Shown here piece by piece: positions 29,607 through 57,479 of a stretch of 64,000 nucleotides of DNA. Within the stretch, counting starts at the first letter, position 1, and every line of letters begins with the position of its first letter. Location of the stretch: positions 24,744-88,743 of the forward strand of contig JAVCCW010000028.1 in NCBI GenBank assembly GCA_030765235.1, given 5' to 3'. Origin of the DNA: Candidatus Gorgyraea atricola (GTDB lineage: Bacteria > Omnitrophota > Gorgyraeia > Gorgyraeales > Gorgyraeaceae). A model generated the notes under the pieces. That model worked only from the letters and a program-made list of their open reading frames with translations, was not told the DNA's origin and searched no databases. Both the position numbers and the translations under genes were made by a program.

Positions 29607-29610
29607 AGAT

Positions 29611-30462: not shown

Positions 30463-30463
30463 A

Positions 30464-36767: not shown

Positions 36768-37895
36768 ATGTTTTCGCTTAGAAAAGTTATAAAAAGACAC
36801 AAAGGCTGGGTTATATTTTTTGGCATTGCCCTGACATTGGTGGCTATAAATAAGGGGATAAAGTATTATGATAGATATAAGTACAATATCCGCGCCACAA
36901 ATGACGTCCCCTTGTATGCGCTTCGCCGCGCGTCGATCAGCCCTGAGCAGATGACCGAATATAGCGCTTGCGGCGAACTCGAGCTATATCCGTATATAAT
37001 GTTTAAGGGCCCTTCCAATGTAAAAAATAAAACAGTAAGCACAAACTCTTTTGGGTTCAGGGGCGGAGAGATCGGCCCAAAGCTCCCAGACACATACAGG
37101 ATAATCCTTGTTGGCGCCTCAACTGTTTTTGGAGGTCATGTTACCTCTGATGAAAAGACATTTGCCGCCCAGCTTGAAAGACAATTAAATTTAAAATCCG
37201 CAGAATTGGACACCTCATTCGAGGTTATCAATGCCTCTTTCCCAGCCTTTAATTCAATGCAGGAACTTATATTAATACAATGGAGGCTTTTAGAGCACTC
37301 TCCGAATATGATAATTATCTGCGATGGTTTTAATGACGCCATGACTTATCTGACGCGCGACAACAGGCCTGGATTTCCTTATCTATTCAAAAAGATAGAA
37401 AAGATCACCTCCACCAGTGCCTTGGTCAAGAATAGGCTGCGGCATATCCGTATATTCAGAAAGATAATGGAGATGATGGAGAAACGTGAGACTCAGAGGC
37501 AGACGACCTTTGATCCAGAGGTCGTGGAGTTTTACAGAAATAATTTAGACGTCATGTGCCATTTGCTGAACAGTTATAATATTAAGCCATTTGTTGTGTT
37601 TCAGCCAGTCTTAGATTATAAAGATCCATTGTCTAAGTTGGAGAGAGATTATTTAGAAGACGAGACCTCGATGAACCGTAAAATATTCGTGGAGCTTTGC
37701 AATGGCTTAGAGGTTGCTGCCAGCGAGGTAGCCAGGCAGAATAACGCGATCTATCTTGATTCGCGCAATGTCTTTGACGGCGTAAACGATACACTGTTTA
37801 CAGATGATTGCCATTTTAATGACAGGGGTCATAAAATAGTAGCTGATAATTTGTATAAGCGTATATATGATTATCTCCTTGGGGCAGGGTTATGA
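36768..37895 (+). CDS. membrane-anchored SGNH/GDSL-family hydrolase (probable glycan O-acyl esterase/transferase)
   Basis: 375 aa. N-terminal TM helix. The catalytic-type pattern is ILVGASTVFG...ICDGFND...TDDCHFNDRGHK (the DxxH of SGNH hydrolases). Confidence 0.5.
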   Translation: MFSLRKVIKRHKGWVIFFGIALTLVAINKGIKYYDRYKYNIRATNDVPLYALRRASISPEQMTEYSACGELELYPYIMFKGPSNVKNKTVSTNSFGFRGGEIGPKLPDTYRIILVGASTVFGGHVTSDEKTFAAQLERQLNLKSAELDTSFEVINASFPAFNSMQELILIQWRLLEHSPNMIIICDGFNDAMTYLTRDNRPGFPYLFKKIEKITSTSALVKNRLRHIRIFRKIMEMMEKRETQRQTTFDPEVVEFYRNNLDVMCHLLNSYNIKPFVVFQPVLDYKDPLSKLERDYLEDETSMNRKIFVELCNGLEVAASEVARQNNAIYLDSRNVFDGVNDTLFTDDCHFNDRGHKIVADNLYKRIYDYLLGAGL

Positions 37896-38299
37896 GAGAA
37901 CGCATAGAATATAACGGAGAACTTCTGGCAATAATAATCAAAGAGGATTATATGCCGGCCAAAACAGAGTTTATTACGCCGGATACATTCAAACAGCAAG
38001 TGGGTTTTGTTGTCTATGATAAAGATAATGAGATACAGCCTCACATTCATCGCGAGATGCCGCGTAGTCTCAAGGGTACATCAGAGGTCTTGATTCTCAA
38101 AAAGGGGCATGTTCGCGTTGATTTTTATTCTCAGAAAAAGCAATATACAGAGAGTCGTGAGCTTATGCCAGGAGATGTGCTTATCTTGGTTTCAGGCGGT
38201 CATGGCTTTCACTTCCACGAATACAGTGTTTTTTTAGAGGTAAAACAAGGCCCTTATATCGGACCCCAGGAAAAAGAAAGATTCTCGAGGCCAGCATGA
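37892..38299 (+). CDS. cupin-fold protein (WxcM/FdtA-like sugar 3,4-ketoisomerase-like)
   Basis: 135 aa. Cupin His motifs PHIHREM...GHGFHFHE. Adjacent to the DegT aminotransferase, as for FdtA-FdtB pairs. Confidence 0.45.
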   Translation: MRERIEYNGELLAIIIKEDYMPAKTEFITPDTFKQQVGFVVYDKDNEIQPHIHREMPRSLKGTSEVLILKKGHVRVDFYSQKKQYTESRELMPGDVLILVSGGHGFHFHEYSVFLEVKQGPYIGPQEKERFSRPA

Positions 38300-39447
38300 T
38301 CCCTGTAAACGAGCCCTTAATGTCTGGTAACGAACTCAAGTATGTTTCGGATTGCATAAAGACAAACTGGATCTCATCTGCAGGCAGCTACCTTGAGCGT
38401 TTTGAAACAGCATGGGCAAAATACTGCGGTCAGAAATACGGAGTCGCAGTCTGTAACGGCACTGTGGCTCTGGAGCTCGCAGTCGAAGTCTGTAATTTCC
38501 CAAAAGGGAGTGAGATAATCCTTCCCAGCTTTACCATTATTTCGTGTGCTCAGGCCATAACAAAGAATGACTGTGTACCTGTTTTAGTAGACTGCGACCC
38601 AGAGGCTTACTGCATGGATGTCAGCCAGATAGAAAAAAAGATTACCAAGCGCACTGTAGCGATTATGCCAGTGCATATCTATGGCCATCCCTGTGACATG
38701 GATCCCATAATGGACATTGCTAAAAAGCATGATCTTGTTGTCATAGAAGATGCAGCTGAGGTCCACGGCGCAGAATACCAGAGTGTCAAAGATAATACCT
38801 GGCATAAATGTGGCAGCTTTGGCCATCTTTCATGTTTTTCCTTTTACGCCAATAAACTAGTCACTACTGGCGAAGGCGGCATGGTCATTACATCCGACGA
38901 TAAACTCGCAGAGAGGCTACAGAGACACAGAAACCTCTGCTTTTTAAAATCACCGCGATTCCTGCACCATCATATAGGAAATAATTTTAGGATGACAAAT
39001 ATACAGGCAGCGCTTGGCCTTGCGCAGCTCGAGAATATAGATAAGACGATTAAAAGAAAAAGAGAAATGGCGAAAAAATACTCTGATCTCTTAAATGACC
39101 TACCTCTAAAGCTCCCAACAGAACATAAATGGGCCAGGGGAGTAGTATGGATGTATGGAGTCGTGTTGCAGGAAGAAAAAGGCCAGGGAAATTTGAGCGT
39201 ACAAGACTATATGAAGTGGCCTAATTATAAGATCATGAAAAAATTAGCTAAGCTCGAGATTCAAACGCGGCCATTTTTCATAGGAATGCACGAACAACCG
39301 ATCTTTCAGAGCTTAGAATATTTTAAAAATGAGTCTTATCCTGTAACAGAGGGAATTGCAAGGACAGGATTTTATCTCCCGAGTGGCCAGGTAATAAAAG
39401 ACGCGCAGATAAAAGAAGTGGCTCGCGCCCTGAAAGGGTTATTTTAA
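38296..39447 (+). CDS. DegT/DnrJ/EryC1/StrS-family PLP-dependent sugar aminotransferase (ArnB-like)
   Basis: 383 aa. NGTVALELAV, a catalytic-Lys region FSFYANKLVTTGEGGMV, and SGQVIKDAQIKEVARAL. Confidence 0.8.
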   Translation: MIPVNEPLMSGNELKYVSDCIKTNWISSAGSYLERFETAWAKYCGQKYGVAVCNGTVALELAVEVCNFPKGSEIILPSFTIISCAQAITKNDCVPVLVDCDPEAYCMDVSQIEKKITKRTVAIMPVHIYGHPCDMDPIMDIAKKHDLVVIEDAAEVHGAEYQSVKDNTWHKCGSFGHLSCFSFYANKLVTTGEGGMVITSDDKLAERLQRHRNLCFLKSPRFLHHHIGNNFRMTNIQAALGLAQLENIDKTIKRKREMAKKYSDLLNDLPLKLPTEHKWARGVVWMYGVVLQEEKGQGNLSVQDYMKWPNYKIMKKLAKLEIQTRPFFIGMHEQPIFQSLEYFKNESYPVTEGIARTGFYLPSGQVIKDAQIKEVARALKGLF

Positions 39448-40193
39448 TGAAAAATCGCTTATCAGTAATATTGCCCACTTACAATGAGGCAGAAAACATA
39501 AAACCCCTGATAGATGCCATAAGAGATGCGCTGGAAGAGGTTTATGAGGTAATAGTCGTTGATGATAATTCTCCTGATGGTACGAGTGAAATCGTTGAGA
39601 AGATGATCAGGGGAGGGGGATACCAGTTTTTAAAATTAGAGAAGAGGACTAGCGACAGGGGTTTGACTAAGAGTATAGCCAGAGGCATAGAACTTGCCAC
39701 AGGTGATGTGGTAGGCTGGATGGACTGCGATTTTTCAATGCCCCCGAAATACCTGCCAGTACTTTTGTCACTTATTAATGCGGATTACGATATTGCAGTA
39801 GGTTCTCGCTTTCTTCTGGGCGGCAGATGGAAGGGAGAAAAGAAAAATCCGGAAGATACTTTTCTTGGAGTCATATTGAGCCGCATTATGAATTTATTTA
39901 TACAGGTCTGTCTTGATCATAGATTCAGGGATTATACCAGCGGTTTTGTCGTGGCGCGCAGAGAAATTTTTGAAAAGATCGAGCTGAGGGGGGACTACGG
40001 TGAGTATTTTATAGATTTTATCTATCGTGCCCTGAAGTCAAATTATCATGTGGTCGAGGTCCCGTATGTATGGCGCCCCAGAAAAGCAGGTTGCTCTAAA
40101 ACAGGGATCAATCTAGCTGATTATTGCAGGCGCGGCTGGAAATATATTATTACTACGTTGAGGTTGCTGTTCTCATGCCGAAAGTCTTATTAA
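39447..40193 (+). CDS. GT2 polyprenol-phosphate sugar transferase (DPM1/ArnC-like)
   Basis: 248 aa. LSVILPTYNEAENI...VIVVDDNSPDGT and a DxD-type WMDCD. Confidence 0.75.
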   Translation: MKNRLSVILPTYNEAENIKPLIDAIRDALEEVYEVIVVDDNSPDGTSEIVEKMIRGGGYQFLKLEKRTSDRGLTKSIARGIELATGDVVGWMDCDFSMPPKYLPVLLSLINADYDIAVGSRFLLGGRWKGEKKNPEDTFLGVILSRIMNLFIQVCLDHRFRDYTSGFVVARREIFEKIELRGDYGEYFIDFIYRALKSNYHVVEVPYVWRPRKAGCSKTGINLADYCRRGWKYIITTLRLLFSCRKSY

Positions 40194-41596
40194 TAAATCC
40201 GCCTTTTGAGCAGGAAGAAGAGTCTGTTGGGCGGTCCAGGAGTATCAAGAAGGTACTTAATATAGTGCCGCCTCTTGGTATTGCGTACATTGCCGCGATC
40301 CTGGAAGAGATGGACATAGAGACAAAGATAATAGACTGTGCCATAGGTATTTCATTCGATGATCTTTACAAGAGAATACTTGAGGAATCCCCAGACGTAA
40401 TCGGTATCACTTCTACTACACCCGCCTTTGTAAAGGCCAAAAAGTTAGCTTCTTTTATTCGCGAACAATTCCCTTTAACAAAGATCCTGATAGGCGGCGC
40501 CCAGCTAACAGCACTTCCCTGCGAAACCATGGAGACCGGGCTTTTTGATATAGGGGTGATCGGCGAGGGGGAATTAACAGCCAAAGAGTTGTTTAAAAAT
40601 TATAGAAACAAAAGATTCGAGGCCCTTGATCAGATACGAGGCATTATCTATAAAGACCAAACAGGTATACATCAGAATCCAGATCAGGATTTTATCAATG
40701 ATCTTGATTTGATCCCTATGCCTGCAAGACATCTATTGCCTCATCCTAAATTTTACCGGCCGACACCTGCATCGTGTCGTCGTGTGCCATACGTCGTTAT
40801 CATGACGAGCCGCGGCTGCCCATCGCAGTGCACCTTTTGTGACAGAAAGATCTTTGGTATGCGATGCAGGATGCGAAGCGGACCTAATATTTTCCAGGAG
40901 ATAGAAGAGGTTATTGCGAAGTATGACGTGAAAGAAATCAGATTTTTTGACGATACATTTACTTTGAATAAAAAAAGGGTTTATGAGATCTGTGATGAGT
41001 TTGAAAAGAGAAGGCTTAAGCTGTCGTGGACGTGTCTGACAAAAGTAGCTTGTGTGGATGGGCCGCTTCTAAAGCGTATGAAAAAGGCCGGGTGCTGGCA
41101 GGTGTTGTATGGTTTTGAATCAGGCGATGACCGCATGCTCAAGCTTCTTAAAAAAGGAAATACTGTTGAGATGAATAAGAAGGCAGCACGCCTTACAAAA
41201 GAGGCAGGACTGGAGGTGCGCGGAGATTTTATTGTAGGTACGCCTGGCGAAACATGGGAGAGCCTTGAAAGGACCGTGCGATTCGCGATCGATATGGATT
41301 TGGACTACGCGCATTTTAATAAATTCACACCTTTTCCAGGGACGGAGCTTTATAGGAAACTTACAGACGAAGGCCATGTGTTTGATTTTTCAAAGAGTAC
41401 AATACTGGACCACAAACAGGTTCATTACAATAATCCTGACATGGACACAACTGAATTCTCAAGGTTTTTAGACAGGGCCAGTAAGCGTTTTTATCTCAGG
41501 CCCAGATATATCTTGAAAAGACTATTTTCAATAAGGACCCTGCACCAGTTAAAAGGGCAGATAGATGGATTTTTTGCGATATTTGAGTTGCAATAA
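40175..41596 (+). CDS. B12-binding-domain radical SAM protein (class B)
   Basis: 474 aa from the ATG at 40175. An N-terminal cobalamin-binding-like Rossmann region (PPLGIAYIAAILEE), then a radical SAM domain with the CPSQCTFCD CxxxCxxC motif. Confidence 0.75.
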   Translation: MPKVLLINPPFEQEEESVGRSRSIKKVLNIVPPLGIAYIAAILEEMDIETKIIDCAIGISFDDLYKRILEESPDVIGITSTTPAFVKAKKLASFIREQFPLTKILIGGAQLTALPCETMETGLFDIGVIGEGELTAKELFKNYRNKRFEALDQIRGIIYKDQTGIHQNPDQDFINDLDLIPMPARHLLPHPKFYRPTPASCRRVPYVVIMTSRGCPSQCTFCDRKIFGMRCRMRSGPNIFQEIEEVIAKYDVKEIRFFDDTFTLNKKRVYEICDEFEKRRLKLSWTCLTKVACVDGPLLKRMKKAGCWQVLYGFESGDDRMLKLLKKGNTVEMNKKAARLTKEAGLEVRGDFIVGTPGETWESLERTVRFAIDMDLDYAHFNKFTPFPGTELYRKLTDEGHVFDFSKSTILDHKQVHYNNPDMDTTEFSRFLDRASKRFYLRPRYILKRLFSIRTLHQLKGQIDGFFAIFELQ

Positions 41597-41645
41597 AATA
41601 TAGAGGCCGAGTCACCACTTTTGTGGTATAATAAATAACCTTAAT

Positions 41646-42725
41646 ATGACAAAAAGGATACTGATAATAAATCCATTCGGAATAGGGGATGTTTTGTTTT
41701 CAACCCCTTTGATCGCTACTATTAAAGAAAAATACTCTGGGTGCTATATAGGGTATATATGTAATATAAGGACAGAGGAGATACTGGCTGCAAATCCCGG
41801 GATAGACGAAGTTTTTATATTTGAGAGAGATGAATATAGAGAGCTCTGGAAGAAGTCAAAACTGGAATGTCTTAAGAAGCTTTGCGATTTCTGGAAAGAG
41901 ATAAAAAAAAGAAGATTCGATCTATTGTTTGACCTTTCCCTGGGCAGGGAATATGCGTTTTTATGCTGGTTGATAGGCATAAGAGAGCGCAGGGGTTTTA
42001 ATTATAAAGGCCGCGGGAGATTTTTGACGCATAAGATTCAGTTTGATGGGTTTAGTGGCAGGCCTGTCGCGGAATATTACTTGGATGCTATTAGGGACAA
42101 GGGACAAGGGACAAGGGACAAGGGGTTGATTTTAGCAACAACAGATAAGGATAAAGAATATATTGATGCCTTTTTGAAAAAGGCAGGGATTAAAGAACAG
42201 GATACGCTGGTCGGCATTGCGCCTGGAGGAGGCGCTTCTTATGGCAAAGAAAAATCCCATTACAAAAGATGGGGCTGTGAGAAGTTTGCTGTGCTTGCTG
42301 ACAGGATAGCATCGTGCGGGGCTAAGCCTATCTTACTGGGAGGACCTAAAGAAAAAGACTTGATCAGGGATGTTAAACTAAAAATGCAAGGCAAGCCCCT
42401 CATGGGGCCAGACGCAAAAATAAGAGAGATGGCTTGTTTGATCAAAAGATGTAACGTACTTGTGTGTAACGACGGGGGACTCTTACATATAGCCGTGAGT
42501 CAGGATACGCCTACAGTTTCCATTTTCGGACCCACTGATGAAAAGGTCTATGGCCCGTATCCGGCATCTAAAAAACATATTGTTGTAACAAACAATGCGG
42601 ATTGCAGGCCTTGCTACAGGCGTTTCAGGCTGCCAGAATGTACTGACAGGAAGTGCATGGAAGACCTTTCTGTAGACTCTGTTTTTAACGCGCTTTCAAA
42701 ATTTATCCAAGAGGTAGGGACATGA
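41646..42725 (+). CDS. GT9-family glycosyltransferase (LPS heptosyltransferase-like); contains GGGACAA x4 repeat
   Basis: 359 aa. [24 protein letters not shown]-terminus, and LGGPKEKDL...[16 protein letters not shown]-terminal GT-B motifs. Confidence 0.75.
42094..42125 (+). repeat. tandem heptanucleotide GGGACAA x4 (+GGGG) inside the GT9 ORF
   Basis: gggacaagggacaagggacaagggacaagggg, translated [11 protein letters not shown]. The same heptamer flanks the palindromic mini-repeats. Confidence 0.8.
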
Positions 42726-43828
42726 AAGTCGATATATTGAGCCTGAAAAAACAGCATGAAGGCATAAAGGATGAGATAAAAAAATCCATGGAAAGAGTCA
42801 TAAGTTCAGGAGGATTCATTCTTGGAGAAGATGTGAAGCTTTTTGAACAGGAATTCGCGGATTATTGTGGCGTAGCGCATGGCGTAGGCGTAAATTCCGG
42901 CACAGACGCGCTGTTTCTCGCCTCTCTTGCCTGTGGAATAGGAAAGGGCGACGAGGTAATCACGATACCTTATACTTACATTGCTACGATTCTTGCCATA
43001 TCTATGACAGGCGCAAGGCCAGTGTTTGTCGATATAGACGAAAAGACCTATAACATCGATGTTTCAAAAATAGAAAAGGCAATTACCAAAAAGACAAAGG
43101 CTATTCTGCCAGTGCATCTTTACGGCCATCCTGTGGATATGGACCCTTTGATGGGGATAGCGGAAAAGCACGGTCTTAAAGTCATTGAGGACTGTGCCCA
43201 GGCTCACGGCGCGCTTTATAAAAATAAGAAAATAGGCAGTTTCGGAGATGCGGCGTGTTTTTCATTTTACCCTACCAAAAACCTCGGTGCATTTGGCGAC
43301 GCTGGCATGGTCATAACAGATTCTAAGGAGACAAGAGAAAAGCTCCTGCTCCTGCGTGATTGTGGAAGAAAGGGTAGGTATGAACATATCTTAAAAGGTT
43401 TTAATTCAAGGCTCGATACCCTGCAGGCAGCGATACTCAGAGTTAAATTAAGGCATCTGGACAAATACAACGAGAACAGAAGGAAAAACGCGAGTCTCTA
43501 TACAAAGTTATTCAAAGAAAACAAACTAGATATAGGATGTCCTTTTGAGGCTGATTACGCAAAACACGTATACCACCTCTATCCTGCAGGGGTAAAGGAT
43601 AGAGAAAGCGTGAAGGATAGGCTCGTGGAAAAAGGCGTGCGCACGCTTATACATTACTCGATACCAATACACCTGCAAGAGGCCTATAAAGACCTTGGCT
43701 ATAAAAAGGGTGACTTTCCGATTTCAGAAAAGTACTGCGAAAAGATCCTGAGCCTTCCTATGTATCCTGAATTATCAGAAGGGGAGATCAGGTTTGTTGT
43801 AGAGTCGCTCAAGGAGATCTTGTTATGA
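42722..43828 (+). CDS. DegT/DnrJ/EryC1/StrS-family sugar aminotransferase, second copy
   Basis: 368 aa. [27 protein letters not shown], and [18 protein letters not shown]. Confidence 0.8.
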
Positions 43829-44478
43829 GAAAGATAAGAGAAAAGATAAAAAAGAACTATAGCCAGATGAAGCGCAGATTGACCTGGATATTGTATAGGA
43901 AAAAGAGAATCCTTGCCATGGATTGCAGAGAATTGATAGAGAAGAAGAGGAAAGACGGCCCGATAAAATTACATCTTTGCTGCGGAGGCAATAAGTACCA
44001 GGGCTATATCAATGTGGACATTGTCCCGCTGGAAGGCACAGACGCCCTGATGAATATCCCCCAGGACCTGTTTTTAGTGTCGCCAAACTCAGCTTCAGAG
44101 ATACTGATAGAAAGTGGTTTTGAGCATTTTTACAGATACCAGCAGGATGATTTTTTAAAGGAGTGTTACAGGATCCTTGTGGATAAAGGCAGGCTTGCGA
44201 TGAAAAACATACCTGATTTTGACTTGATTGCGGACGCGTACCTGGGCAAAAAGCAGGGAAACATCAGTCCTATATTTGATCTCTACGAGGTCTATAGGCT
44301 TACGCATGGGGCGCCAGAGCCCAGAAACTCACCGCATCAATTACATAAAGACATCTTTACTAAAGGATCTGTCAGGGAATTGTTAGAGCGAAATAAATTT
44401 AAGATACAAGAGATGCGTGACACTATATTCCGCGGAGAAAACACTGCTGCGAGCTTCGATGTAGTCGCAGTTAAATAA
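43825..44478 (+). CDS. putative class I SAM-dependent methyltransferase-like protein
   Basis: 217 aa. [20 protein letters not shown] resembles a methyltransferase motif I (xLxLGCG..GWINID). Weak. Confidence 0.4.
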
Positions 44479-44491
44479 CAAGGTTTAAATT

Positions 44492-44830
44492 ATGGATAAA
44501 AAATATATACTTGTCTGTGAAAAGGGGTGGCGCAAGATAAGAGAGTTATCGCTGGATCTGGCAGAAAAAGGCATCTCTTCCACTGTTTTAATAAGGGGGT
44601 TGGTCAGACCAGATGTAGAGAGGATGATAACAGCACATAAAGAGATAAGTAACGTATTTGTCCCGGAGAAGCTTTTCACATTAATCCTTTTCATGCGCAT
44701 GGCCACCAGCTTAATTTTGTGTCCACGAAGGAGATTGTTAATAGCCCTTAGCAAAGAAAAGACCTATAAGAGATTAGAGATACTTAAGAAAATTTTTCGC
44801 AGGATCGAATTGGCAAAGGTTTTTGATTAG
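44492..44830 (+). CDS. hypothetical protein
   Basis: 112-aa ORF with no recognisable motifs. It competes with an antisense 89-aa ORF. Kept only because of its co-orientation and tight spacing. Confidence 0.25.
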   Translation: MDKKYILVCEKGWRKIRELSLDLAEKGISSTVLIRGLVRPDVERMITAHKEISNVFVPEKLFTLILFMRMATSLILCPRRRLLIALSKEKTYKRLEILKKIFRRIELAKVFD

Positions 44831-44832
44831 AC

Positions 44833-45687
44833 ATGAAAATAGCTATTATATTTGGCAAGGAACGTCTGGATACAGTAGGCATATATTTTGAACGAGCGTT
44901 AAAGGCCCTGGGCCACGAGGTCAGGCATTTTTGGCCTAAAGATATAGAAAATATCAGGCCTGAATATGATTTTTATTTTCGAGTGGATGACGGGCACTAT
45001 GATCATTGTATCCCTGAGAGGCTTAAGCCAAGGGTCTATTTTGCCTCGGATACGCATTTAAAAAATCCGTTCAAAAAAATAAAAAAACACATATTGAGAG
45101 AAGCGTACGAACTGGTATTTTGTCCTATGCTGAAGGAAGTAGAGATATTAAAAAAGGTCTCTCCTGTAGAAATAATCTGGATGAATTTCGCATGCGATCC
45201 TGAGGTGCATAAGAGGTTGGATATAGAGAGAAATTACGATATAGGTTTTGTGGGAAACGACGGCGGGGTGCCCAGAAAGTTCTATCTTCAGGAGCTAAGA
45301 GAACGGTATCCGAAAAGTTTCATAGACCGAGCTGATTATTCACAGATGAGCCAGATCTACAGCTCTTCAAAGATAGGCTTTAACTTTGCTATTCGCGGAG
45401 AATCCCTTACTATGAGGAGCTATGAGATAATGGCCTGCAAGGCAATGCTTCTTATGCAGAGATTAAGGGACAATAGCGCTGAAAAGGCCGGTTTTATCGA
45501 CGGGAAACATCTTGTGTTTTTTGACAAGCCAGAGGATCTGTTCAAACTTATCGAGCATTATCTGAAAAACAAGAAAGAAAGGGAAGAGATAGCGGAAAAC
45601 GGCTATCGTCTCACACTCGAGAGACATACTTACACTCATAGGATCAACGAGATGCTCGATATAATTAAAGATAGGTTTAAGATATGA
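44833..45687 (+). CDS. CgeB-like glycosyltransferase-family protein (GT1-like C-terminal domain)
   Basis: 284 aa. The C-terminal ...MACKAMLLMQR...GKHLVFFDKPEDLFKLIEHYLKNKKEREEIAENGYRLTLERHTYTHRI resembles the CgeB/Glyco_trans_1_2 family. Confidence 0.45.
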   Translation: MKIAIIFGKERLDTVGIYFERALKALGHEVRHFWPKDIENIRPEYDFYFRVDDGHYDHCIPERLKPRVYFASDTHLKNPFKKIKKHILREAYELVFCPMLKEVEILKKVSPVEIIWMNFACDPEVHKRLDIERNYDIGFVGNDGGVPRKFYLQELRERYPKSFIDRADYSQMSQIYSSSKIGFNFAIRGESLTMRSYEIMACKAMLLMQRLRDNSAEKAGFIDGKHLVFFDKPEDLFKLIEHYLKNKKEREEIAENGYRLTLERHTYTHRINEMLDIIKDRFKI

Positions 45688-47189
45688 GACAGAAAGCAAA
45701 AAAGGATATTGTATTAATAATATTTTGTCTTTTGGCAGGGGTAATATTATTTACCAATCTGGGGAACATCTATCTCTGGCAGGATGAGGCAACAACCGCA
45801 GTTTTAGCTAAAAACACACTTGAGTTTGGGATCCCCAGGACCTTTGACGGGACTAATCTTATTACGACTATTTACTCTGACCCTTGCAAATATAGTGGAT
45901 GGAAATACGCCCCGTGGTTTCAATTTTATCTTGCGGCATTATCCTTTTACTTGTTTGGAGTCAGTACTTTTGCTGCGAGACTCCCTTTCGCTGTGTTTGG
46001 TATGGGTAGCTTGATATTGTGTTATTTACTCGCGCAGAGGCTTTTCCAGAATAGGCTCCTCTCCAGGCTATCGACCGCATTTATGCTTTTTTCCGCGCCA
46101 TTCTTTTTATATATGCGTCAGTGCAGATGGTATGGTCTTTCAGTATTTTTTACACTCTGGATTTTGATCTCGTATTTGGACATGATAAAGAAGAAGCGAT
46201 TTTCTGCATGGGGATTTGTCCTGGCAAGCAGCCTTCTCTTTCACTCAAATTATGCAATCTTTTTCCCTGTCTTGGGAGCCATGTGTTTTCACTATCTTGT
46301 GTTTCACAAAAAAGATATTGAATTAAAGAGGATATTAGGCTATCTCTCTATTATTGCTATACTCACTGTACCTTTTTTCCTCTATTCTGTAAACATGGAG
46401 TGTAGCGGGCAGATGACGTTTCTGCGTACAAAAGGTCATTTAGAATTCTATGTCCGCGTCTTAAATAAATACCTATTTCCTCTTGTATTTTTGTTTTTGA
46501 GTCTAGCTGTATTTTCCTTTTTCAAGAAAAAGGTCTTTCCTGTACTGGATAAGGCGCTGGATAGATCTCGACTCTGGTTTTTTCCGCTCGTATTTATTTT
46601 TACTATCTGTTTTCTGCTTTTAGCAGAGGAAAGACAGCTGAGGTATCTTATTCATCTTTTACCTTTATCCTGTATCCTTATGAGTTTTTTAATGATCGGG
46701 TGGCTAAAGCTGAATATTATAGTCGCTGGTCTAGTATTTGTTGTCGCATGTTTTACAAATTCATTTCACACAGGCAGCCCTTTTGCAAAGAAACTATGGA
46801 TACCCATAGTGGATATCGCTTATGAGTTGACCCATGATTATGACGGGCCAGTAGAAGGAATAATAAAGTTTTTAAATAAGAATGCGAGGCCAGGAGATAC
46901 AGTTAAATTGATCATGGGTGATTGCGCGGTTATGTTTTATACAGATTTCAAGGTAGACAATGAAGATTTTACGCAGGAATCATTCCCTGAGTGGATTATA
47001 GTGAGAAATGACTGGGTCTCGTTCAAGAGTTTAAGTGCCAGGTATCGTAGACAAATAGAATCGCAATATCAAAGAATTGAATTAAATTATCCTGATATAA
47101 TGTGGGAAAACCGGCCAGACCCTGGTTATCATAAATTCAAGACAGTAACTGACTGGCCTACTAAAGTGACGGTGTATAAGAAAAGATGA
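45684..47189 (+). CDS. ArnT/PMT-like (GT83/GT39) polytopic membrane glycosyltransferase
   Basis: 501 aa with about 11 TM helices. An N-terminal loop carries WQDEATTAVLAKN (the D-E motif of the first periplasmic loop of PMT_2 transferases). Confidence 0.6.
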   Translation: MRQKAKKDIVLIIFCLLAGVILFTNLGNIYLWQDEATTAVLAKNTLEFGIPRTFDGTNLITTIYSDPCKYSGWKYAPWFQFYLAALSFYLFGVSTFAARLPFAVFGMGSLILCYLLAQRLFQNRLLSRLSTAFMLFSAPFFLYMRQCRWYGLSVFFTLWILISYLDMIKKKRFSAWGFVLASSLLFHSNYAIFFPVLGAMCFHYLVFHKKDIELKRILGYLSIIAILTVPFFLYSVNMECSGQMTFLRTKGHLEFYVRVLNKYLFPLVFLFLSLAVFSFFKKKVFPVLDKALDRSRLWFFPLVFIFTICFLLLAEERQLRYLIHLLPLSCILMSFLMIGWLKLNIIVAGLVFVVACFTNSFHTGSPFAKKLWIPIVDIAYELTHDYDGPVEGIIKFLNKNARPGDTVKLIMGDCAVMFYTDFKVDNEDFTQESFPEWIIVRNDWVSFKSLSARYRRQIESQYQRIELNYPDIMWENRPDPGYHKFKTVTDWPTKVTVYKKR

Positions 47190-48208
47190 AGTGCGATATA
47201 ATTATTCCAGTTTGGAATCAACTCGAGTTTACCAAAAAATGCATAGAGAGTGTTTTTAGAAATACGAATTATGCGTTTCGTTTAGTTGTTATTGATAATG
47301 GAAGCGCTAAGGCTACGAGGGCCTATCTGGATGAATTGGCACGCGATAAAAAAACAGGCGTTACTGTACTTAGAAATAATGAGAATCTGGGATTCATTAA
47401 GGCCACCAACCAAGGGATAAGAGAGTCAGACGCACCTTATGTCTGCCTTTTAAATAATGATACAGAGGTCACAAAAGGCTGGCTTAAAGAAATGGTCAAT
47501 GTAGCTGAGAAGAAAAAGGATATAGGTATAGTTAATGCTAACAGTAATACCCTGGGCTGCAAGGCCAAGTTTGGCCAGTCTGTAGAATCGCTTGCAGAGG
47601 AACTGAGGTCTCACTCTGGAGAGTATAGCATGCTGGCCCAGGCTACAGGGTTTTGCATGTTGATCAAGCGAGAGATCATTGATAAGGTGGGCATTTTTGA
47701 CGAGACCTACGGAATGGGAAATTTCGAAGACGCTGACTTTAGTAAAAGGGCGCAGAGATCAGGTTATTCCTGTGTATGCGCCAGGGCATCCTACGTATAT
47801 CACAGAGAACGACGCTCATTCGTAAGATTTAGGAAGTTTGATCAGGATTTTGATCGTAATCGGGAAATATTTTACTCTAAATGGGGCAGACAAGAGAGGA
47901 TCCTTTATGTGCTTAGTCACAGTGATTCTGCATACAGGAAAGAAATAGGCAGGAGATCTCTTAAATTGGCCCGCGATGGCAATATTGTCTGGATTTTTTC
48001 AAAAGGATGTCCTGGGCAGGATATCGAAAGGCATTCCAATATTTATAGTTATAGCCTGCCAAAGAGGTTTTTTGGTATGATCAGTTTATGGAGGATACTG
48101 AAGCGCAAAAAAAAGTTTGACAAGATATACGTAGATGACGAGAATTATGGGAAGCGCTTAGGGGGTTTTAAATTTTTTCATAAAGCAGAGGTGATTCGTG
48201 GATGCTAA
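47186..48208 (+). CDS. GT2-family glycosyltransferase
   Basis: 340 aa. IIIPVWNQLEFTKKCIESV...VVIDNGSAKAT, and the DxD-region LLNNDTEV. Confidence 0.7.
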   Translation: MKCDIIIPVWNQLEFTKKCIESVFRNTNYAFRLVVIDNGSAKATRAYLDELARDKKTGVTVLRNNENLGFIKATNQGIRESDAPYVCLLNNDTEVTKGWLKEMVNVAEKKKDIGIVNANSNTLGCKAKFGQSVESLAEELRSHSGEYSMLAQATGFCMLIKREIIDKVGIFDETYGMGNFEDADFSKRAQRSGYSCVCARASYVYHRERRSFVRFRKFDQDFDRNREIFYSKWGRQERILYVLSHSDSAYRKEIGRRSLKLARDGNIVWIFSKGCPGQDIERHSNIYSYSLPKRFFGMISLWRILKRKKKFDKIYVDDENYGKRLGGFKFFHKAEVIRGC

Positions 48209-48974
48209 AATTCCTTTATCCGCAGTAATTATTACCAGAAACGAAGAGACCAATATTAAAGAGTGCCTTGAGTCAGTCAGATGGGCGGACGAGATCGTCG
48301 TGGTCGACGACGACAGTACTGACAGGACAGTGGAAATCGCCCAGGGTTATACAGATAGGATTTTTCACAGGAAAATGGATATTGAGGGCAGGCACAGGAA
48401 CTGGGCCTATAGCCAGGCGCGTAATACCTGGGTCTTGAGTCTGGATGCTGATGAGAGGGTGACTCCTGAACTGAGAAAAGAAATACAGGAAACCATATCC
48501 AATGCCGGAAACTTCGAAGGCTTTATTATCCCGCGCAGAAATTATATCGGGAATTACTGGGTCAAATACGGCGGATGGTATCCAAGCGGCCAGTTGAAGA
48601 TGTTTAGAAAAGATAAATTTTACTGGGAAGAGGCCGAGGTCCACCCCCGAGCGTTCTTGGGGACTCCTGCGGGAAGGTTAAAGAATGACATAATCCATTA
48701 TTCGTACAAGAACTTCGAGGATTTTGTCAATAAGATGAACAAGCAGACTACGCTGGAGGCGGCTAAATGGGTCAGGGATAAAAGGGGAATGAGTCTTGGC
48801 AGGGCCCTTCGCCGCACATGCGACCGTTTCCTGCGCACATTCTTTCGCAAAAAGGCGTACAAAGACGGGTTGATTGGTTTTATGGTATCGATCTTTGCCG
48901 GGCTTTATCAGATATTGAGTTATGCTAAATACTATGAACTGAAATTCGCACATAAGTTACGCGATTGCCGATGA
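48198..48974 (+). CDS. GT2-family glycosyltransferase (LPS-core KdtX/WaaE-like)
   Basis: 258 aa. GTG start. LSAVIITRNEETNIKECLESVRWADEIVVVDDDSTDRT, and LSLDADE. A paralog of 54386-55438. Confidence 0.7.
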   Translation: MDAKIPLSAVIITRNEETNIKECLESVRWADEIVVVDDDSTDRTVEIAQGYTDRIFHRKMDIEGRHRNWAYSQARNTWVLSLDADERVTPELRKEIQETISNAGNFEGFIIPRRNYIGNYWVKYGGWYPSGQLKMFRKDKFYWEEAEVHPRAFLGTPAGRLKNDIIHYSYKNFEDFVNKMNKQTTLEAAKWVRDKRGMSLGRALRRTCDRFLRTFFRKKAYKDGLIGFMVSIFAGLYQILSYAKYYELKFAHKLRDCR

Positions 48975-50005
48975 AAAAGGATTTATTGGAAATTTTAAAC
49001 TGTCCAAGCTGCACAAGTACTTTATTTTCATTGCAACAGTGTAAAGTCGATCAGATAGAGGTTAGATCCGGTAGTATAGTTTGTCAGAGTTGTGGGGCTT
49101 CTTACGGGATCGAGAGCGGTATAGTAAATTTTATCAAGGACCCCTCGCAGGGAGTGAAGCAGGAAAGAGAGGCAATGGATGCGGAGGAGTATATTACTGA
49201 CGATAAGGGCAAAAGATATAAGATTAATGAAGAGACAATAGAAAGATTTAAAGATAAATTTCTTTCTATGCCAGAAGGTGATGGCTCACATTTTTTTAGA
49301 AATAGAGGCAGTTTTCAAGCTATTGCAAATATATCTTCCAGAGTCTATTCTACCCTTGATGGTTTGAAGCTCACAGGCAAGGAACACATACTTGAAATAG
49401 GGGCGTGTTTTTCCTATGCCTCTTTTAAGTTCGCCAAAAAAGGGTGTCGTGTCGTGGCTATAGACATAAGCAATTATCTCAAGGTTGCGGATCTTTTTGT
49501 TAAAGAAGCATATTTTGACAGGATGTTTTGCGACATGCATAAGACACCATTTGGAGACGAAACATTTGATATTATATTTGGTTCGGCAGTCCTTCATCAC
49601 AGTAAGGAGTTGTCCCTGGTTTTCAAAGAGATGCGCCGTATTTTAAAACCAGACGGGCGCCTAGTATTGATCAACGAAGTAGCAAGAGGTCTTTTTGAAA
49701 AGGTGCACCCTATATTTGAAAAAATGCAGAAACAAGGCTACGGAGATACTTCTTATACTTTAACAGAATGGCAAAAGGCAGCATACAAAGGCGGCTTTAA
49801 GAATGTGAGGATTGATTTTTTATCGCTTGCAGACGATTATATAACAAGGCACAAGAATAAGGATTTGCAGGATCAGGATAGTGTTAAGCTTAGACTTGCA
49901 AAGTTTTTTAAAACGCATATAATACTAGAAAAATGCCTGTCTTTTCTTTTGATTCCGCCGAGGCTTTTTTTTAGGCCAAAAAGCTGGAAGATTACATGTT
50001 ATTAG
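48971..50005 (+). CDS. class I SAM methyltransferase with N-terminal Trm112-like zinc ribbon
   Basis: ATGA overlap. LEILNCPSCTS...CQSCGASYGIESGIVNF, then ILEIGACFSYASFKFAKKGCRVVAIDIS, DIIFGSAVLHH and LKPDGRLVL. Confidence 0.6.
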   Translation: MKKDLLEILNCPSCTSTLFSLQQCKVDQIEVRSGSIVCQSCGASYGIESGIVNFIKDPSQGVKQEREAMDAEEYITDDKGKRYKINEETIERFKDKFLSMPEGDGSHFFRNRGSFQAIANISSRVYSTLDGLKLTGKEHILEIGACFSYASFKFAKKGCRVVAIDISNYLKVADLFVKEAYFDRMFCDMHKTPFGDETFDIIFGSAVLHHSKELSLVFKEMRRILKPDGRLVLINEVARGLFEKVHPIFEKMQKQGYGDTSYTLTEWQKAAYKGGFKNVRIDFLSLADDYITRHKNKDLQDQDSVKLRLAKFFKTHIILEKCLSFLLIPPRLFFRPKSWKITCY

Positions 50006-50015
50006 GAGGTAAGAT

Positions 50016-50609
50016 ATGGGAATGCGATTAGCAGATAAAGTTCAGTCAATTTTTTATATTAATAGATTAAAGAAGCTTGACAAGGTCAAGGGATATCTTG
50101 GTTTAAACGAGGGTTTTCTGCTATTTAAGATCGCGAGATCGCTCAGGGAAAATTCGGTGATCGTGGAGATAGGTAGTTTTAAAGGAAAGTCCACTTGTTT
50201 TATAGCAGAAGGCATAGGTGACAAAAAAATGCAGTTTTTTTGTATCGATCCCTGGAGGGACGACCTGATGCAGGAAAAAGGAGATGCGATATTTAACGAA
50301 TTCCTGCAAAATACAAAAGAATATAAGGACAGGTTCAGTGTATTGCGGGGATTTTCCCATGAAGTGATCATGGAGTGGCCCGTACACAGAAAGATAGATT
50401 TTCTGTGGGTCGACGGAGATCATTCTTACGAAGGAGTTAAGGAGGATATTCTTAATTGGATGCCTCTGGTTAAAAAGAACAGTTTTATTTGTTTTCATGA
50501 CTATAGGGACGCGCCTGGAGTTAAAAAAGCAGTGGATGAATTGGCGAGAGACAATAAGATCAAATTTATTAAGAGAGTAGGATGTACCTATGTTTCAAAA
50601 TTACTTTAG
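50016..50609 (+). CDS. class I SAM-dependent O-methyltransferase-like protein (TylF/CmcI-type fold)
   Basis: 197 aa. IVEIGSFKGKST...FLWVDGDHSYEGVKEDILNW...FHDY. AGGAGG RBS. Confidence 0.6.
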   Translation: MGMRLADKVQSIFYINRLKKLDKVKGYLGLNEGFLLFKIARSLRENSVIVEIGSFKGKSTCFIAEGIGDKKMQFFCIDPWRDDLMQEKGDAIFNEFLQNTKEYKDRFSVLRGFSHEVIMEWPVHRKIDFLWVDGDHSYEGVKEDILNWMPLVKKNSFICFHDYRDAPGVKKAVDELARDNKIKFIKRVGCTYVSKLL

Positions 50610-51705
50610 AGGCATAAAGAAGAAAGATAGAAAAAAAAGGATCCTTTTTGCGGGGATCTCTCCTACTAATTTTGTTCAGTTTGCGCCAATCTATGAAGTT
50701 CTTAAACAAGATTCCAGAATTGAGGTTTTTTTATCAGGGATGTCTCATGGTAAAGATCGGCCGCAGGATATCTACAGGTATTTTGACGTGGACAAAAAAT
50801 TTATAATAAAAGAAAAAGTGGCAAAGCGCTTTTATTTCGATATATACGTAAGTCCTGATTTCCATTTAGTAGGTAAAAGACACGGTGTAAGCGTGCAGAT
50901 GTTCCATGGTAACTCATTCAGAAATTTTTCCATAAACGAAGAGGCAAAGAATTTTGATCACCTTTTCCTGATGGGCTCATATATGAAGCGCAAATTTTTA
51001 GAATTGGGAATTTTTAAAGAGGGAGAAAGTAGGTTTGAAGAAATAGGGATGCCTCAGACAGATGCTCTTTTGAACAATACAGATACGGGATTGCGTGAAA
51101 AACTTAATTTGAATAAAAAGTTTGCTACCGTACTCTATGCCCCGGTCTGGGCCCATATGGAAAGTTTCCTGGAAGATGTACGGAGAACCTTACAGGAGTT
51201 GACCTCGCTTGAGGTAAATCTACTCGTGAAGATGCACCATGGTTTTTATTCTAAGGAATTAAATAAGATTAAATGGCAAGAATATCTAGATGAGCTTTTA
51301 AAGAAAAATATAAATATGCACTTGATAAAAGATTTTGATATTGTGCCGTATATGCGCATTAGTGATTTACTTGTAAGCGATGCAAGCGGAGTCGTGCATC
51401 AATTTTCCATATTAGATAGGCCGATCGTATGTATAAAGATAGACATCGATGAATTCAGAAAAGGTTATCCAAACCTTGATCAGGCGGCGTATGCGAATCG
51501 TGCAGTCGTAGAGGTCTCTACAGGAGAATCCCTGAAGGAAGCTGTACTGAAAGAGCTTGCTGATCCCGGTAGGTTAAGCCGACAAAGATTGGCTATGGCC
51601 AAGGAGTATTTTTATAATATTGGTTTTTCTACTAAATATGCTATCTCAAGACTTTATCGTTTTCTTAATAAGGAGCCTTTACAATACAGAGAGAAGGAGA
51701 TATGA
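50590..51705 (+). CDS. CDP-glycerol glycerophosphotransferase-family protein (TagB/TagF-like)
   Basis: 371 aa. VLYAPVWAH matches the YAPTWR region, and HLIKDFDIVPYMRISDLLVSDASGVVHQFSILDRPIVCIKID matches the C-terminal catalytic region of Glyphos_transf. Confidence 0.6.
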   Translation: MFQNYFRGIKKKDRKKRILFAGISPTNFVQFAPIYEVLKQDSRIEVFLSGMSHGKDRPQDIYRYFDVDKKFIIKEKVAKRFYFDIYVSPDFHLVGKRHGVSVQMFHGNSFRNFSINEEAKNFDHLFLMGSYMKRKFLELGIFKEGESRFEEIGMPQTDALLNNTDTGLREKLNLNKKFATVLYAPVWAHMESFLEDVRRTLQELTSLEVNLLVKMHHGFYSKELNKIKWQEYLDELLKKNINMHLIKDFDIVPYMRISDLLVSDASGVVHQFSILDRPIVCIKIDIDEFRKGYPNLDQAAYANRAVVEVSTGESLKEAVLKELADPGRLSRQRLAMAKEYFYNIGFSTKYAISRLYRFLNKEPLQYREKEI

Positions 51706-53101: not shown

Positions 53102-53127
53102 AATTTCTAGAAAAGGAGATTTAAAAA

Positions 53128-57462: not shown

Positions 57463-57479
57463 GGAAGATATAAGGAGGA

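Follow-up and report, generated by a model that had tools for sequence, protein, structure and literature searches.

A candidate lipid-carrier glycosylation pathway with a radical SAM step in an Omnitrophota envelope-glycan operon

The Arn pathway uses ArnB, ArnC and ArnT to put L-Ara4N on lipid A. Genes that recall these three lie together with a gene for a B12-binding radical SAM enzyme in the 64,000-nt stretch of DNA from Candidatus Gorgyraea atricola analysed here (the window), which raises the questions of whether they form one pathway, what the radical SAM enzyme adds to it and where the sugar would end up. As set out below, the gene set inside this Omnitrophota LPS operon seems to assemble an amino sugar of unusual kind on a lipid carrier in the membrane, for attachment outside the cell.

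The operon and its genes

The genes of interest lie on the + strand within an array (36768-60490) of about 25 envelope-glycan genes that all point the same way; the array is predicted to be an LPS-type envelope glycan operon. The ORF positions given in a preliminary description of the locus were all matched exactly. The array opens with two translationally coupled genes absent from that description, encoding a GDSL/SGNH-family protein with an N-terminal TM helix (36768-37895; Pfam Lipase_GDSL_2, E 1.4e-8) and, with a 4-nt overlap, a weakly WbuC-like cupin of 135 aa (37892-38299; NCBIfam TIGR04366, E 1e-8, 35 bits versus a cutoff of 42), for which Pfam and PDB gave no match. Orthologs of the cupin stand directly 5' of the DegT gene in Omnitrophota, Hydrothermarchaeota and Woesearchaeota loci, and the protein may isomerise or epimerise a keto sugar. 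A T2SS/T4P gene cluster is located 10 kb upstream.

The cupin gene and the three that follow it overlap by 1-19 nt each. The first of the three encodes DegT1, a PLP sugar aminotransferase of 383 aa (38296-39447; Pfam DegT_DnrJ_EryC1, E 3e-107), which keeps the PLP lysine (FSFYANK) and is closest to the perosamine-synthase/LegC type, with 311 bits to the NCBIfam LegC family and GDP-perosamine synthase 3bn1 as best PDB match (E 1e-79), followed by 7b0d, annotated as an inosose/inositol transaminase (E 1e-70). The next product, GT2a (39447-40193; 248 aa; Pfam Glycos_transf_2, E 4e-33), had been described as DPM1/ArnC-like, and homology to polyprenyl-phosphate glycosyltransferases is borne out by its best PDB match, P. 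furiosus Dol-P-Man synthase 5mlz (E 1.6e-30, residues 4-231), with ArnC structures next (about 1e-11). This putative lipid-carrier sugar synthase consists of the catalytic domain only, without a TM domain, and its DPM1-type DXD motif (MDCDFSMPP) is conserved in orthologs. The radical SAM enzyme (rSAM, 40175-41596; 473 aa) carries Pfam B12-binding (E 4e-20, 72 bits) and Radical_SAM (E 3e-25) domains, and its CxxxCxxC motif (C215/C219/C222) is invariant. Its ORF opens at 40124 or 40175, the ATG at 40175 being most likely the true start because the N-termini of orthologs match there.

Five genes and 4 kb separate rSAM from the ArnT-like transferase. They encode a GT9 heptosyltransferase-like protein of LPS inner-core type (41646-42725; Pfam Glyco_transf_9, E 7e-26; NCBIfam heptosyltransferase II, 126 bits versus a cutoff of 134.6), a second, PseC/PglE-like sugar aminotransferase, DegT2 (42722-43828; Pfam E 1e-124; NCBIfam PseC, 276 bits versus 423), a possible class I methyltransferase of 217 aa (43825-44478), a 112-aa protein without assigned function (44492-44830) and a CgeB-like Glyco_trans_1_2 glycosyltransferase (44833-45687; Pfam E 8.5e-27), whose gene overlaps the start of the transferase gene by 4 nt at its 3' end. 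The last two were likewise absent from the preliminary description; the 112-aa ORF, without a family match in Pfam or NCBIfam, is conserved beside the glycosyltransferase gene that follows it, with orthologs of 59-62% identity in loci L008 and L080. Several methyltransferases had been placed between GT2a and the transferase, but the 43825 product is the sole candidate there, with very weak matches (Pfam Methyltransf_11, E 0.12; PDB MmaA4, E 0.018), a 71%-identical ortholog following DegT2 in L008; clear methyltransferases do exist, downstream of the transferase (48965, 50016, 56578).

The transferase itself (45684-47189; 501 aa) is a polytopic, ArnT/PMT_2-like protein (Pfam PMT_2, E 1.3e-8, 35.6 bits versus a cutoff of 26.1) with a C-terminal soluble domain at about residues 375-501. 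The DE motif attributed to its N-terminal loop is real: D34 and E35 come just after TM1, in the first extracytoplasmic loop, and none of 30 aligned sequences departs from them. Its AF2 model (pLDDT 89, pTM 0.91) supports a confident assignment to the GT-C fold: ArnT 5f15 is the best Foldseek match (E 3.7e-8, TM 0.57), followed by ALG9, STT3, Pmt4, DPY19 and PglB, and the significant matches are all lipid-carrier-dependent GT-C enzymes. The preliminary description had held that classification as a protein O-mannosyltransferase unrelated to lipid carriers, together with a GT2 devoid of polyprenol-P transferase signatures, would speak against its scheme; this is ill-posed because protein O-mannosyltransferases too take their donor from a lipid carrier.

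Further downstream follow two more GT2s (47186, 48198) and a Trm112-fused class I methyltransferase (48965; the three spanning 47186-50005, Pfam), then a class I methyltransferase (56578) and an SDR resembling NDP-sugar 4,6-dehydratases (57480; together 56578-58523, Pfam), and the heptose-1,7-bisphosphate phosphatase GmhB (58673-59227; NCBIfam NF006506). The SDR (NCBIfam dTDP-glucose 4,6-dehydratase, 161 bits versus a cutoff of 365) would be a possible conventional origin for a 4-keto sugar. GmhB, at 183 bits versus a cutoff of 178, is a marker of LPS-core context, which WecB and GT9 also supply in the window; GmhB aside, all NCBIfam scores lie under the curated equivalog cutoffs. The operon also holds an NTP-transferase and many cytoplasmic glycosyltransferases (Pfam). 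As previously noted, there are no ArnA or ArnD homologs: a Pfam scan of 55 large ORFs of the window, which left out five ORFs of at least 150 aa in its left 21 kb, gave neither a formyltransferase domain of ArnA type nor a deacetylase domain of ArnD type.

A cassette conserved around the radical SAM gene

Orthologs of rSAM occur in bacteria and archaea with 41-94% identity, and the cassette data all come from genes of uncultured organisms. Within a 3-kb radius of the rSAM ortholog, counted in the 50 bacterial and archaeal loci whose flanking DNA was long enough, a DegT gene was found in 35-38 loci and a DPM1-like GT2 gene in 26-29, whereas other GT2s (3/50), GT9 (2/50) and SDR genes (1/50) were rare. 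On these counts the association of DegT, GT2 and rSAM is well beyond chance, and rSAM is the anchor of a conserved cassette in which gene order is shuffled among loci and closeness is kept. The comparative genomics that the preliminary description had suggested was carried out, and the set of aminotransferase, GT2 and rSAM recurs in more than 10 phyla, often with a GT-C gene adjoining. Many of the bacteria and archaea in which rSAM keeps these neighbours are anaerobes. No description of the cassette was found in curated families or the literature, in keeping with the earlier suggestion of an undescribed pathway.

The GT-C partner varies. Members of the 45684 family come within 3 kb of rSAM in only 7 of the 50 loci; they adjoin the cassette in L003, L006, L007, L010, L013 and L086, and full-length homologs stand beside rSAM in Desulfobacterota and directly 3' of it in L006, L007, L010 and L013. 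Elsewhere the neighbour is a PMT_2 protein (L015, L049, L078, L087, and a weaker, sub-threshold one in L030), or is GT87/PIG-U-like (L029), PTPS_related/PMT_2 (L048), STT3/AglB (L016) or YfhO-like (L022). Compact blocks with few other genes around are seen in L003, L086 and L087, the last a single co-directional block from Chloroflexi in the order PMT_2, GT2, DegT, rSAM and methyltransferase.

These data bear on the most serious alternative, in which a mixed LPS operon brings together neighbours that share no single pathway: DegT1, with the help of the SDR at 57480, would supply a cytoplasmic glycosyltransferase with an NDP-amino sugar, a plain hexose side branch would come from GT2a and the GT-C in the manner of Gtr systems, and rSAM would C-methylate some other residue. 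Consistent with this are the 4,6-dehydratase-like SDR, the NTP-transferase and the many cytoplasmic glycosyltransferases, the five genes that part the GT-C from the DegT1-GT2a-rSAM triad, and the likeness of GT2a to mannose-transferring DPMS. It is nevertheless unlikely, as DegT and the DPM1-like GT2 keep beside rSAM across phyla despite shuffled order and other glycan-cluster families do not, the compact blocks have little else around them, and of the 29 loci with both rSAM and DegT only 3 have an SDR gene within 5 kb.

Proposed pathway and its relatives

The reading preferred here, to which we assign a probability of roughly 0.55, is an Arn/Gtr-type three-component periplasmic glycosylation with a radical SAM tailoring step and LPS core or O-chain as predicted acceptor. 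The genes present, the families and folds assigned to them and their co-localisation across phyla are observed directly; from homology and gene linkage the steps would run as follows. DegT1 would make the amino sugar, the cupin possibly isomerising a keto intermediate, and rSAM would act as obligate partner of the aminotransferase. GT2a would then charge polyprenyl phosphate at the cytoplasmic face with a sugar presumed to be the DegT1 product; we know of no DegT enzyme with a lipid-linked sugar as substrate. A flippase would take the lipid-linked sugar across the membrane, where the GT-C would move it from the lipid carrier to an extracytoplasmic acceptor.

The Arn-like architecture of lipid-carrier sugar synthase and GT-C is supported, and the earlier three-step scheme of aminotransferase, GT2 and GT-C holds by homology and fold, although no protein here is orthologous to its Arn counterpart, with DegT1 reaching 180 bits where the ArnB cutoff is 631 and GT2a 55 bits where the ArnC cutoff is 529. 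Unlike Arn, the cassette has no equivalents of ArnA, ArnD or ArnE/F, its aminotransferase is of perosamine-synthase/LegC type, GT2a lacks the TM domain of ArnC, a B12 radical SAM enzyme is integral to it and it is also archaeal. GT2a has its closest solved homolog in P. furiosus DPMS, with a shared 'DxDLSxxP'-type metal motif, and human DPM1 is likewise a catalytic domain without TM helices; what sets GT2a apart is its genetic linkage with aminotransferase and radical SAM genes. The three-component systems (GtrA/B/V; CsbB/GtcA/YfhO; the pentofuranose system, PMC11127046) share the pairing of polyprenyl-phosphate sugar synthase and GT-C, as well as a GT-C partner that changes from lineage to lineage. 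In the pentofuranose system auxiliary epimerases tailor the lipid-linked donor, a precedent for such tailoring within three-component systems (PMC11127046). In contrast, no flippase gene of GtrA, SMR or MATE type was found in the window cluster, and the cassette has as its auxiliaries an aminotransferase together with a class B radical SAM enzyme, a combination for which no description was found in the literature on three-component systems.

As for the radical SAM chemistry, NCBIfam places rSAM nearest to HpnJ (hopanoid cyclitol ether; 230 bits, full length, cutoff 577.6) and BchE (anaerobic Mg-protoporphyrin cyclase; 209 bits, cutoff 481), with methylase families lower at no more than 148 bits. 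The full-length alignment and the architecture of about 470-500 aa are shared with HpnJ and BchE, but neither score comes to half of its cutoff, and a hopanoid or bacteriochlorophyll context is lacking. PDB matches comprise AprD4, OxsB, MgmA, TokK, TsrM and CysS; of these AprD4 is closest to the radical SAM domain in sequence (E 5e-34), and its structure matches over the full length (TM 0.73). AprD4 is the radical SAM 1,2-diol dehydratase of apramycin, with a keto-deoxy amino sugar as product, and to our knowledge none of HpnJ, BchE and AprD4 is a methylase. A lipid-linked amino sugar has been proposed as the HpnJ substrate (PMC13459092) and the BchE reaction yields a ketone (PMC13598231), while AprD4 does not bind cobalamin (PMC12931638), unlike rSAM with its canonical B12-binding domain. 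GenK, GenD1 and MoeK5 are class B sugar-methylating enzymes (PMC12931638); rSAM fits the NCBIfam methylase families less well than it fits HpnJ and BchE. The B12-radical-SAM identity given in the preliminary description stands as regards both domains, but the class B methyltransferase subfamily is not the nearest named one, and the GenK/GenD1-type C-methylation it had suggested is possible but not supported. We lean slightly towards rSAM forming the keto group that DegT1 aminates, by BchE-type oxidation or AprD4-type dehydration; that it could C-methylate the sugar ranks slightly below.

The acceptor

An acceptor in lipid A, as had been considered, is not supported, since archaeal cassettes adjoin AglB/STT3 and PMT_2 proteins; because archaea carry the cassette too, its conserved function is probably donor synthesis and not lipid A modification. 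In this bacterium LPS core or O-chain would be the most plausible acceptor, because GT9 and GmhB adjoin and O-antigen ligase (Wzy_C) genes lie near the cassette in relatives (L010, L012, L022). The same donor might instead go to protein, by PMT-like O-glycosylation of an S-layer, pilin or lipoprotein. The PMT_2 domain match, Pmt4 and STT3 among the structural matches, the AglB and PMT_2 neighbours in archaea, which lack LPS, and the T2SS/T4P cluster would suit such a target, which we consider improbable given that ArnT is the best structural match, that Pfam finds PMT_2 alone in the 45684 protein and neither MIR nor any further domain specific to PMTs, and that the operon is LPS-core-like and relatives have ligase genes nearby. 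Least probable is a lipid-linked aminocyclitol or other rearranged head group, formed by ring contraction of a lipid-linked hexosamine, as put forward for HpnJ and for Cds (calditol), and ending as a membrane lipid instead of a GT-C donor, which would accord with HpnJ as top named family, with the lipid-linked hexos(amin)e proposed as substrate of HpnJ and Cds (PMC13459092) and with the 7b0d match of DegT1, but sits poorly with the low HpnJ score, with the lack of hopanoid or tetraether genes among the window ORFs scanned with Pfam and with the recurrent GT-C neighbours, which imply a glycosyl donor that a cyclitol phosphate would not be.

A GDSL gene adjoins rSAM or GT2 in L002, L080 and L015, and an ortholog of the Trm112-methyltransferase (53% identity) comes after rSAM-GDSL in L002 and L080. 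The 56578 methyltransferase is the best match in the window to a methyltransferase of about 245 aa that adjoins the cassette in Desulfobacterota loci, and a similar one adjoins it in Chloroflexi too.

Gene content and the proposed glycosylation route

All large genes of the window lie on the + strand of what is a chromosomal segment, and the closest relatives point to Candidatus Omnitrophota as the host lineage: the top rSAM homologs are 94% identical, and those relatives that carry a name are Omnitrophota MAGs. Between 36768 and ~60490, roughly 25 genes form a single co-directional array whose junctions are mostly overlaps or gaps of ≤53 nt, the two largest gaps (~140–150 nt) being located near the 3′ end; a promoter and terminator scan of the window stayed at background level and was uninformative on operon boundaries. 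A GDSL protein gene (36768, +) and a WbuC-like cupin gene (37892, +) are translationally coupled upstream of the first DegT aminotransferase gene (DegT1, 38296–39447, +), followed by a GT2 glycosyltransferase (GT2a, 39447–40193, +), the B12-binding radical SAM protein (rSAM, from 40124 or 40175 to 41596, +), a GT9 (41646–42725, +), a second DegT (DegT2, 42722–43828, +) and the 501-aa PMT_2 protein (GT-C, 45684–47189, +). The Pfam families and coordinates of the two DegT, GT2a, rSAM, GT9 and GT-C ORFs agree with the preliminary description; of the several methyltransferases it placed between GT2a and GT-C, just one weak methyltransferase-like ORF is present there (43825), and the clear methyltransferases of the operon are encoded downstream of GT-C. 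WecB, GmhB and a 4,6-dehydratase-like SDR (57480, +) are encoded in the same operon.

The best-supported reading of this gene set is extracytoplasmic glycosylation of the three-component type with an amino-sugar donor, the formation of which involves a class B radical SAM enzyme. The DPM1-like GT2a would charge polyprenyl phosphate, and GT-C would pass the sugar on outside the membrane. A GT-C is encoded together with the GT2 in the window, as identified by structural model and fold search, and adjoins the cassette of cupin, DegT1, GT2a and rSAM genes in relatives. That auxiliary enzymes can tailor a lipid-linked donor is known from the pentofuranose three-component systems (PMC11127046). The window cluster yielded no gene for a dedicated flippase (GtrA, SMR or MATE), its only polytopic proteins being GT-C and a GlpT-like MFS transporter, and this is a real gap in the three-component reading. 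The acceptor in this window is most plausibly the LPS core or O-chain, since GT9 and GmhB are encoded in the operon and O-antigen ligase genes occur near the cassette in relatives. As the cassette is also found in archaea, its conserved role is probably synthesis of the donor and not lipid A modification.

Further genes of the window are of note in their own right. Inside the LPS-type operon, 50590–54333 (+) encodes a TagF-like CDP-glycerol glycerophosphotransferase, a cytidylyltransferase-like NTP transferase, a DUF2490 protein and the GlpT-like MFS transporter, a combination that hints at glycerol-phosphate decoration of the teichoic-acid kind in a diderm. At 59369–61191 (+), a glycosyltransferase resembling MGDG and diglucosyl-diacylglycerol synthases (197 bits against a cutoff of 500) is followed, after a 4-nt overlap, by the gene of a short protein (234 aa) that carries only a PolyA_pol head domain. 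Upstream of the operon, a 2003-aa ORF (10702–16713, +) combines an S8 subtilase having a fervidolysin-like prodomain with beta-helix/NosD, PKD, He_PIG and dockerin domains. The product is probably a very large protease, either secreted or displayed on the cell surface, and its gene sits directly upstream of a T2SS/T4P gene cluster. A secretin of T2SS/T4P type (26425–28386, +) bears a TonB_C domain at its C-terminus. The genes at 28455–31672 (+) encode an acyl-CoA dehydrogenase, ETF-beta and an ETF-alpha that starts with a ferredoxin domain of two [4Fe-4S] clusters; an electron-transfer complex of this kind, possibly a bifurcating one, would be expected in an anaerobe, and acyl-CoA dehydrogenase/ETF genes also precede the cassette in a close relative (locus L001).

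Glycosyltransferases, aminotransferase and the relation to Arn

In its manner of working, the proposed module resembles the Arn and Gtr systems. The Arn-like character suggested earlier stands for the architecture and falls for orthology: membership in the Arn pathway was rejected because the ortholog tests fail for both ArnB (DegT1 scores 180.5 bits against NCBIfam NF008658, cutoff 631) and ArnC (GT2a scores 55.5 bits against NF007986, cutoff 529) and because no counterpart of ArnA, ArnD or ArnE/F turned up in the scanned ORFs and the gene cluster. In line with the preliminary description, neither Formyl_trans (ArnA) nor Polysacc_deac (ArnD) was detected among the 55 large window ORFs scanned with Pfam, a set from which five ORFs of at least 150 aa were left out, and the cluster contains no small polytopic ORF of the ArnE/F flippase type. 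Unlike ArnB, DegT1 is perosamine-synthase/LegC-like; it retains the PLP lysine and is nearest to GDP-perosamine synthase (PDB, E 1e-79) and the LegC family, with ArnB structures matching far below at about 1e-35 to 1e-37. A literature search on PDB entries 7B0D and 7B0M returned nothing relevant.

GT2a differs from ArnC in being DPMS-like. Its best solved homolog in a PDB sequence search is the dolichyl-phosphate-mannose synthase of P. furiosus (5mlz, E 1.6e-30, residues 4–231), with cryo-EM structures of ArnC and then GtrB (5ekp) ranking next, and a DPM1-type DXD motif, MD[AC]D[FL]S[MH]PP, is present in GT2a and its orthologs. The protein is therefore not a GT2 without polyprenol-phosphate transferase signatures, an outcome the preliminary description had named as refuting, and from its sequence it is predicted to be a GT2 polyprenyl-phosphate glycosyltransferase. 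It comprises 248 aa and lacks an ArnC-like C-terminal TM domain, the sole hydrophobic stretch lying mid-sequence in close orthologs. Searches of NCBIfam and the literature found no curated model or paper for a system combining a radical SAM enzyme, a polyprenyl-phosphate glycosyltransferase and a DegT aminotransferase.

Searching the PDB with the GT-C sequence produced no match above noise, so that structure prediction was needed. The AlphaFold model, built with a 30-sequence alignment, is confident (pLDDT 89, pTM 0.91), and every structure that it matches significantly is a GT-C enzyme, the best being ArnT (E 3.7e-8, TM 0.57; sequence identity 12–14%), followed by ALG9, STT3/PglB/AglB, Pmt4, DPY19 and Emb/Aft. 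The N-terminal-loop DE motif recognised earlier corresponds to D34-E35 directly after TM1, which are invariant in the alignment. The hallmarks of a protein O-mannosyltransferase (GT39, PMT) are not seen: Pfam matches PMT_2 only, a domain also found in ArnT-like enzymes, and neither PMT (PF02366) nor MIR, and PMT structures align with the model over only about 270 columns. To our knowledge every GT-C enzyme, PMTs included, uses a lipid-carrier donor, and the idea that a PMT unrelated to lipid carriers would refute the module was consequently ill-posed.

Homologs of the window GT-C are encoded directly downstream of rSAM in several Omnitrophota loci (L006, L007, L010 and L013). In Desulfobacterota, full-length homologs stand beside rSAM in two tandem copies that share with the window protein an N-terminal LW(Q/N)DE and a C-terminal YELTH.Y.GP motif. 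The tandem paralogs of L003 (6420–9869) and L086 (4289–7878) measure 565–586 aa, are divergently transcribed from rSAM and carry no Pfam annotation on either copy; the view that the unannotated 565- and 568-aa proteins of L003 are unrelated membrane proteins was dropped, as both proved homologous to the window GT-C over their whole length.

The radical SAM enzyme and its possible reaction

By domain content and fold, rSAM is a canonical class B radical SAM enzyme. The HMM typing proposed in the preliminary description identifies an N-terminal B12-binding domain (PF02310, 72 bits) and a Radical_SAM domain (PF04055, 90 bits) with a CxxxCxxC core, in which C215, C219 and C222 are invariant. No curated NCBIfam family reaches its cutoff; the best models are HpnJ (TIGR03471, 230 bits against 577.6) and BchE (209 against 481), and methylase families score 148 bits or less. 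Assignment as HpnJ was rejected on the sub-cutoff score and the wrong context, there being no hopanoid genes (hpn, shc) among the scanned ORFs of the window. The diol dehydratase AprD4 is the best PDB sequence match. In the fold search the methylases TsrM, MgmA, TokK and CysS and the non-methylases OxsB and AprD4 matched equally (E about 1e-17 to 1e-24, the two groups not being separated), and fold therefore cannot assign the chemistry.

Two reactions are about equally likely, with a slight lean to the first. In this first and still tentative proposal, rSAM and not an NAD-dependent dehydratase or dehydrogenase forms the carbonyl that is aminated by DegT, possibly on the polyprenyl-phosphate-bound sugar. 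In its favour, of the 29 loci with both rSAM and DegT just 3 have an extended SDR within 5 kb, and the compact modules of L087 and L086 hold no other candidate keto-forming enzyme, both statements applying to a screen that did not cover Gfo/Idh/MocA-type sugar dehydrogenases. The product of AprD4, moreover, is a keto-deoxy sugar. Among the best-scoring families, BchE creates a ketone (PMC13598231) and HpnJ has been proposed to rearrange a lipid-linked hexosamine (PMC13459092). According to the second proposal rSAM C-methylates the sugar, the usual reaction of most class B enzymes. This would suit its canonical B12 domain, in which it differs from AprD4, an enzyme that binds no cobalamin (PMC12931638), as well as the conventional 4,6-dehydratase-like SDR of the window operon and the extra class B paralogs found in 16 of 50 loci, which resemble multi-methylation clusters. 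Ring contraction or formation of a cyclitol is less likely, because linkage to GT-C implies a glycosyl donor.

Should the carbonyl-forming reaction prove true, lipid-linked amino or deoxy-amino sugars would be made by a radical route that needs no oxygen, has spread horizontally among anaerobic bacteria and archaea and supplies diverse GT-C transferases. More generally, the rSAM reaction could disclose a new way of making amino or C-methyl sugars. Class B enzymes of ~470 aa resembling rSAM fall into 12,714 clusters at 50% identity (E below 1e-30); for function assignment, the genomic context of the rSAM orthogroup is unusually well defined, and solving its reaction would provide a function for one well-defined group within this very large uncharacterised family.

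The cassette across phyla

Lipid-carrier donors in periplasmic glycan modification are the basis of polymyxin resistance, serotype conversion and cell-wall decoration. In all such systems known to us, conventional nucleotide-sugar chemistry supplies the donor. In the present cassette, the enzymes that make the donor have a cobalamin-type radical SAM enzyme as an obligate genetic partner. The lineages carrying the cassette (Omnitrophota, the PVC group, Desulfobacterota, Chloroflexi, DPANN and other archaea) have seen almost no experimental glycobiology, and once the rSAM reaction is solved, a surface epitope could be predicted for many anaerobes not yet in culture.

Orthologs of rSAM measure about 472 aa, share 41–94% identity and all come from uncultured organisms, on the bacterial side Omnitrophota, Desulfobacterota, PVC/Planctomycetes, Elusimicrobia, Anaerolineae/Chloroflexi and Aminicenantes, on the archaeal side Nano-, Woese-, Bathy- and Altiarchaeota, Hydrothermarchaeota and Methanosarcinales. 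The ORFs of 85 loci were translated and each assigned to its best-matching window protein, and neighbours within 3 kb were counted in the 50 non-redundant loci having at least 3 kb on each side of rSAM. The co-occurrence envisaged in the preliminary description is borne out for DegT (35–38 of 50) and the small DPM1-like GT2 (26–29 of 50), other GT2 types (3/50), GT9 (2/50) and SDR (1/50) being rare, and the GT-C family varies: homologs of the window family are found in only 7 of the 50, and other families, namely PMT_2, PTPS_related, GT87/PIG-U-like, STT3/AglB and YfhO-like proteins, occur in cassette loci, many of them directly adjoining. Across phyla gene order and strand are shuffled yet proximity is kept, which argues for selection on linkage rather than shared ancestry of one arrangement. 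In the Chloroflexi locus L087, PMT_2, GT2, DegT, rSAM and a class I methyltransferase constitute one co-directional block, and the same five components surround rSAM in a complete Thermodesulfobacteriota chromosome. What looks like a DegT-rSAM fusion in L077 is spurious and stems from long ORFs that overlap in different frames.

The archaeal orthologs (L016, L029, L030, L039, L045, L049, L066, L076 and L085) are 41–58% identical to the window rSAM, unusually high for a comparison across domains, and their sequences suggest that the cassette moved by horizontal transfer among anaerobes. One or two additional class B paralogs, 25–34% identical to the window enzyme, adjoin the cassette in the 16 loci that carry them, for example in L006 (13625–16400), L007 (5087–7319), L011 (8417 and 13717) and L087 (14076–15593); the window has none. 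Also absent from the window is a conserved Cys-rich ORF of 100–111 aa (CxxCGxCC ... FPID), which directly follows the rSAM ortholog in about nine loci, among them L015 (11391–11726), L016 (10882–11217) and L018 (2521–2823).
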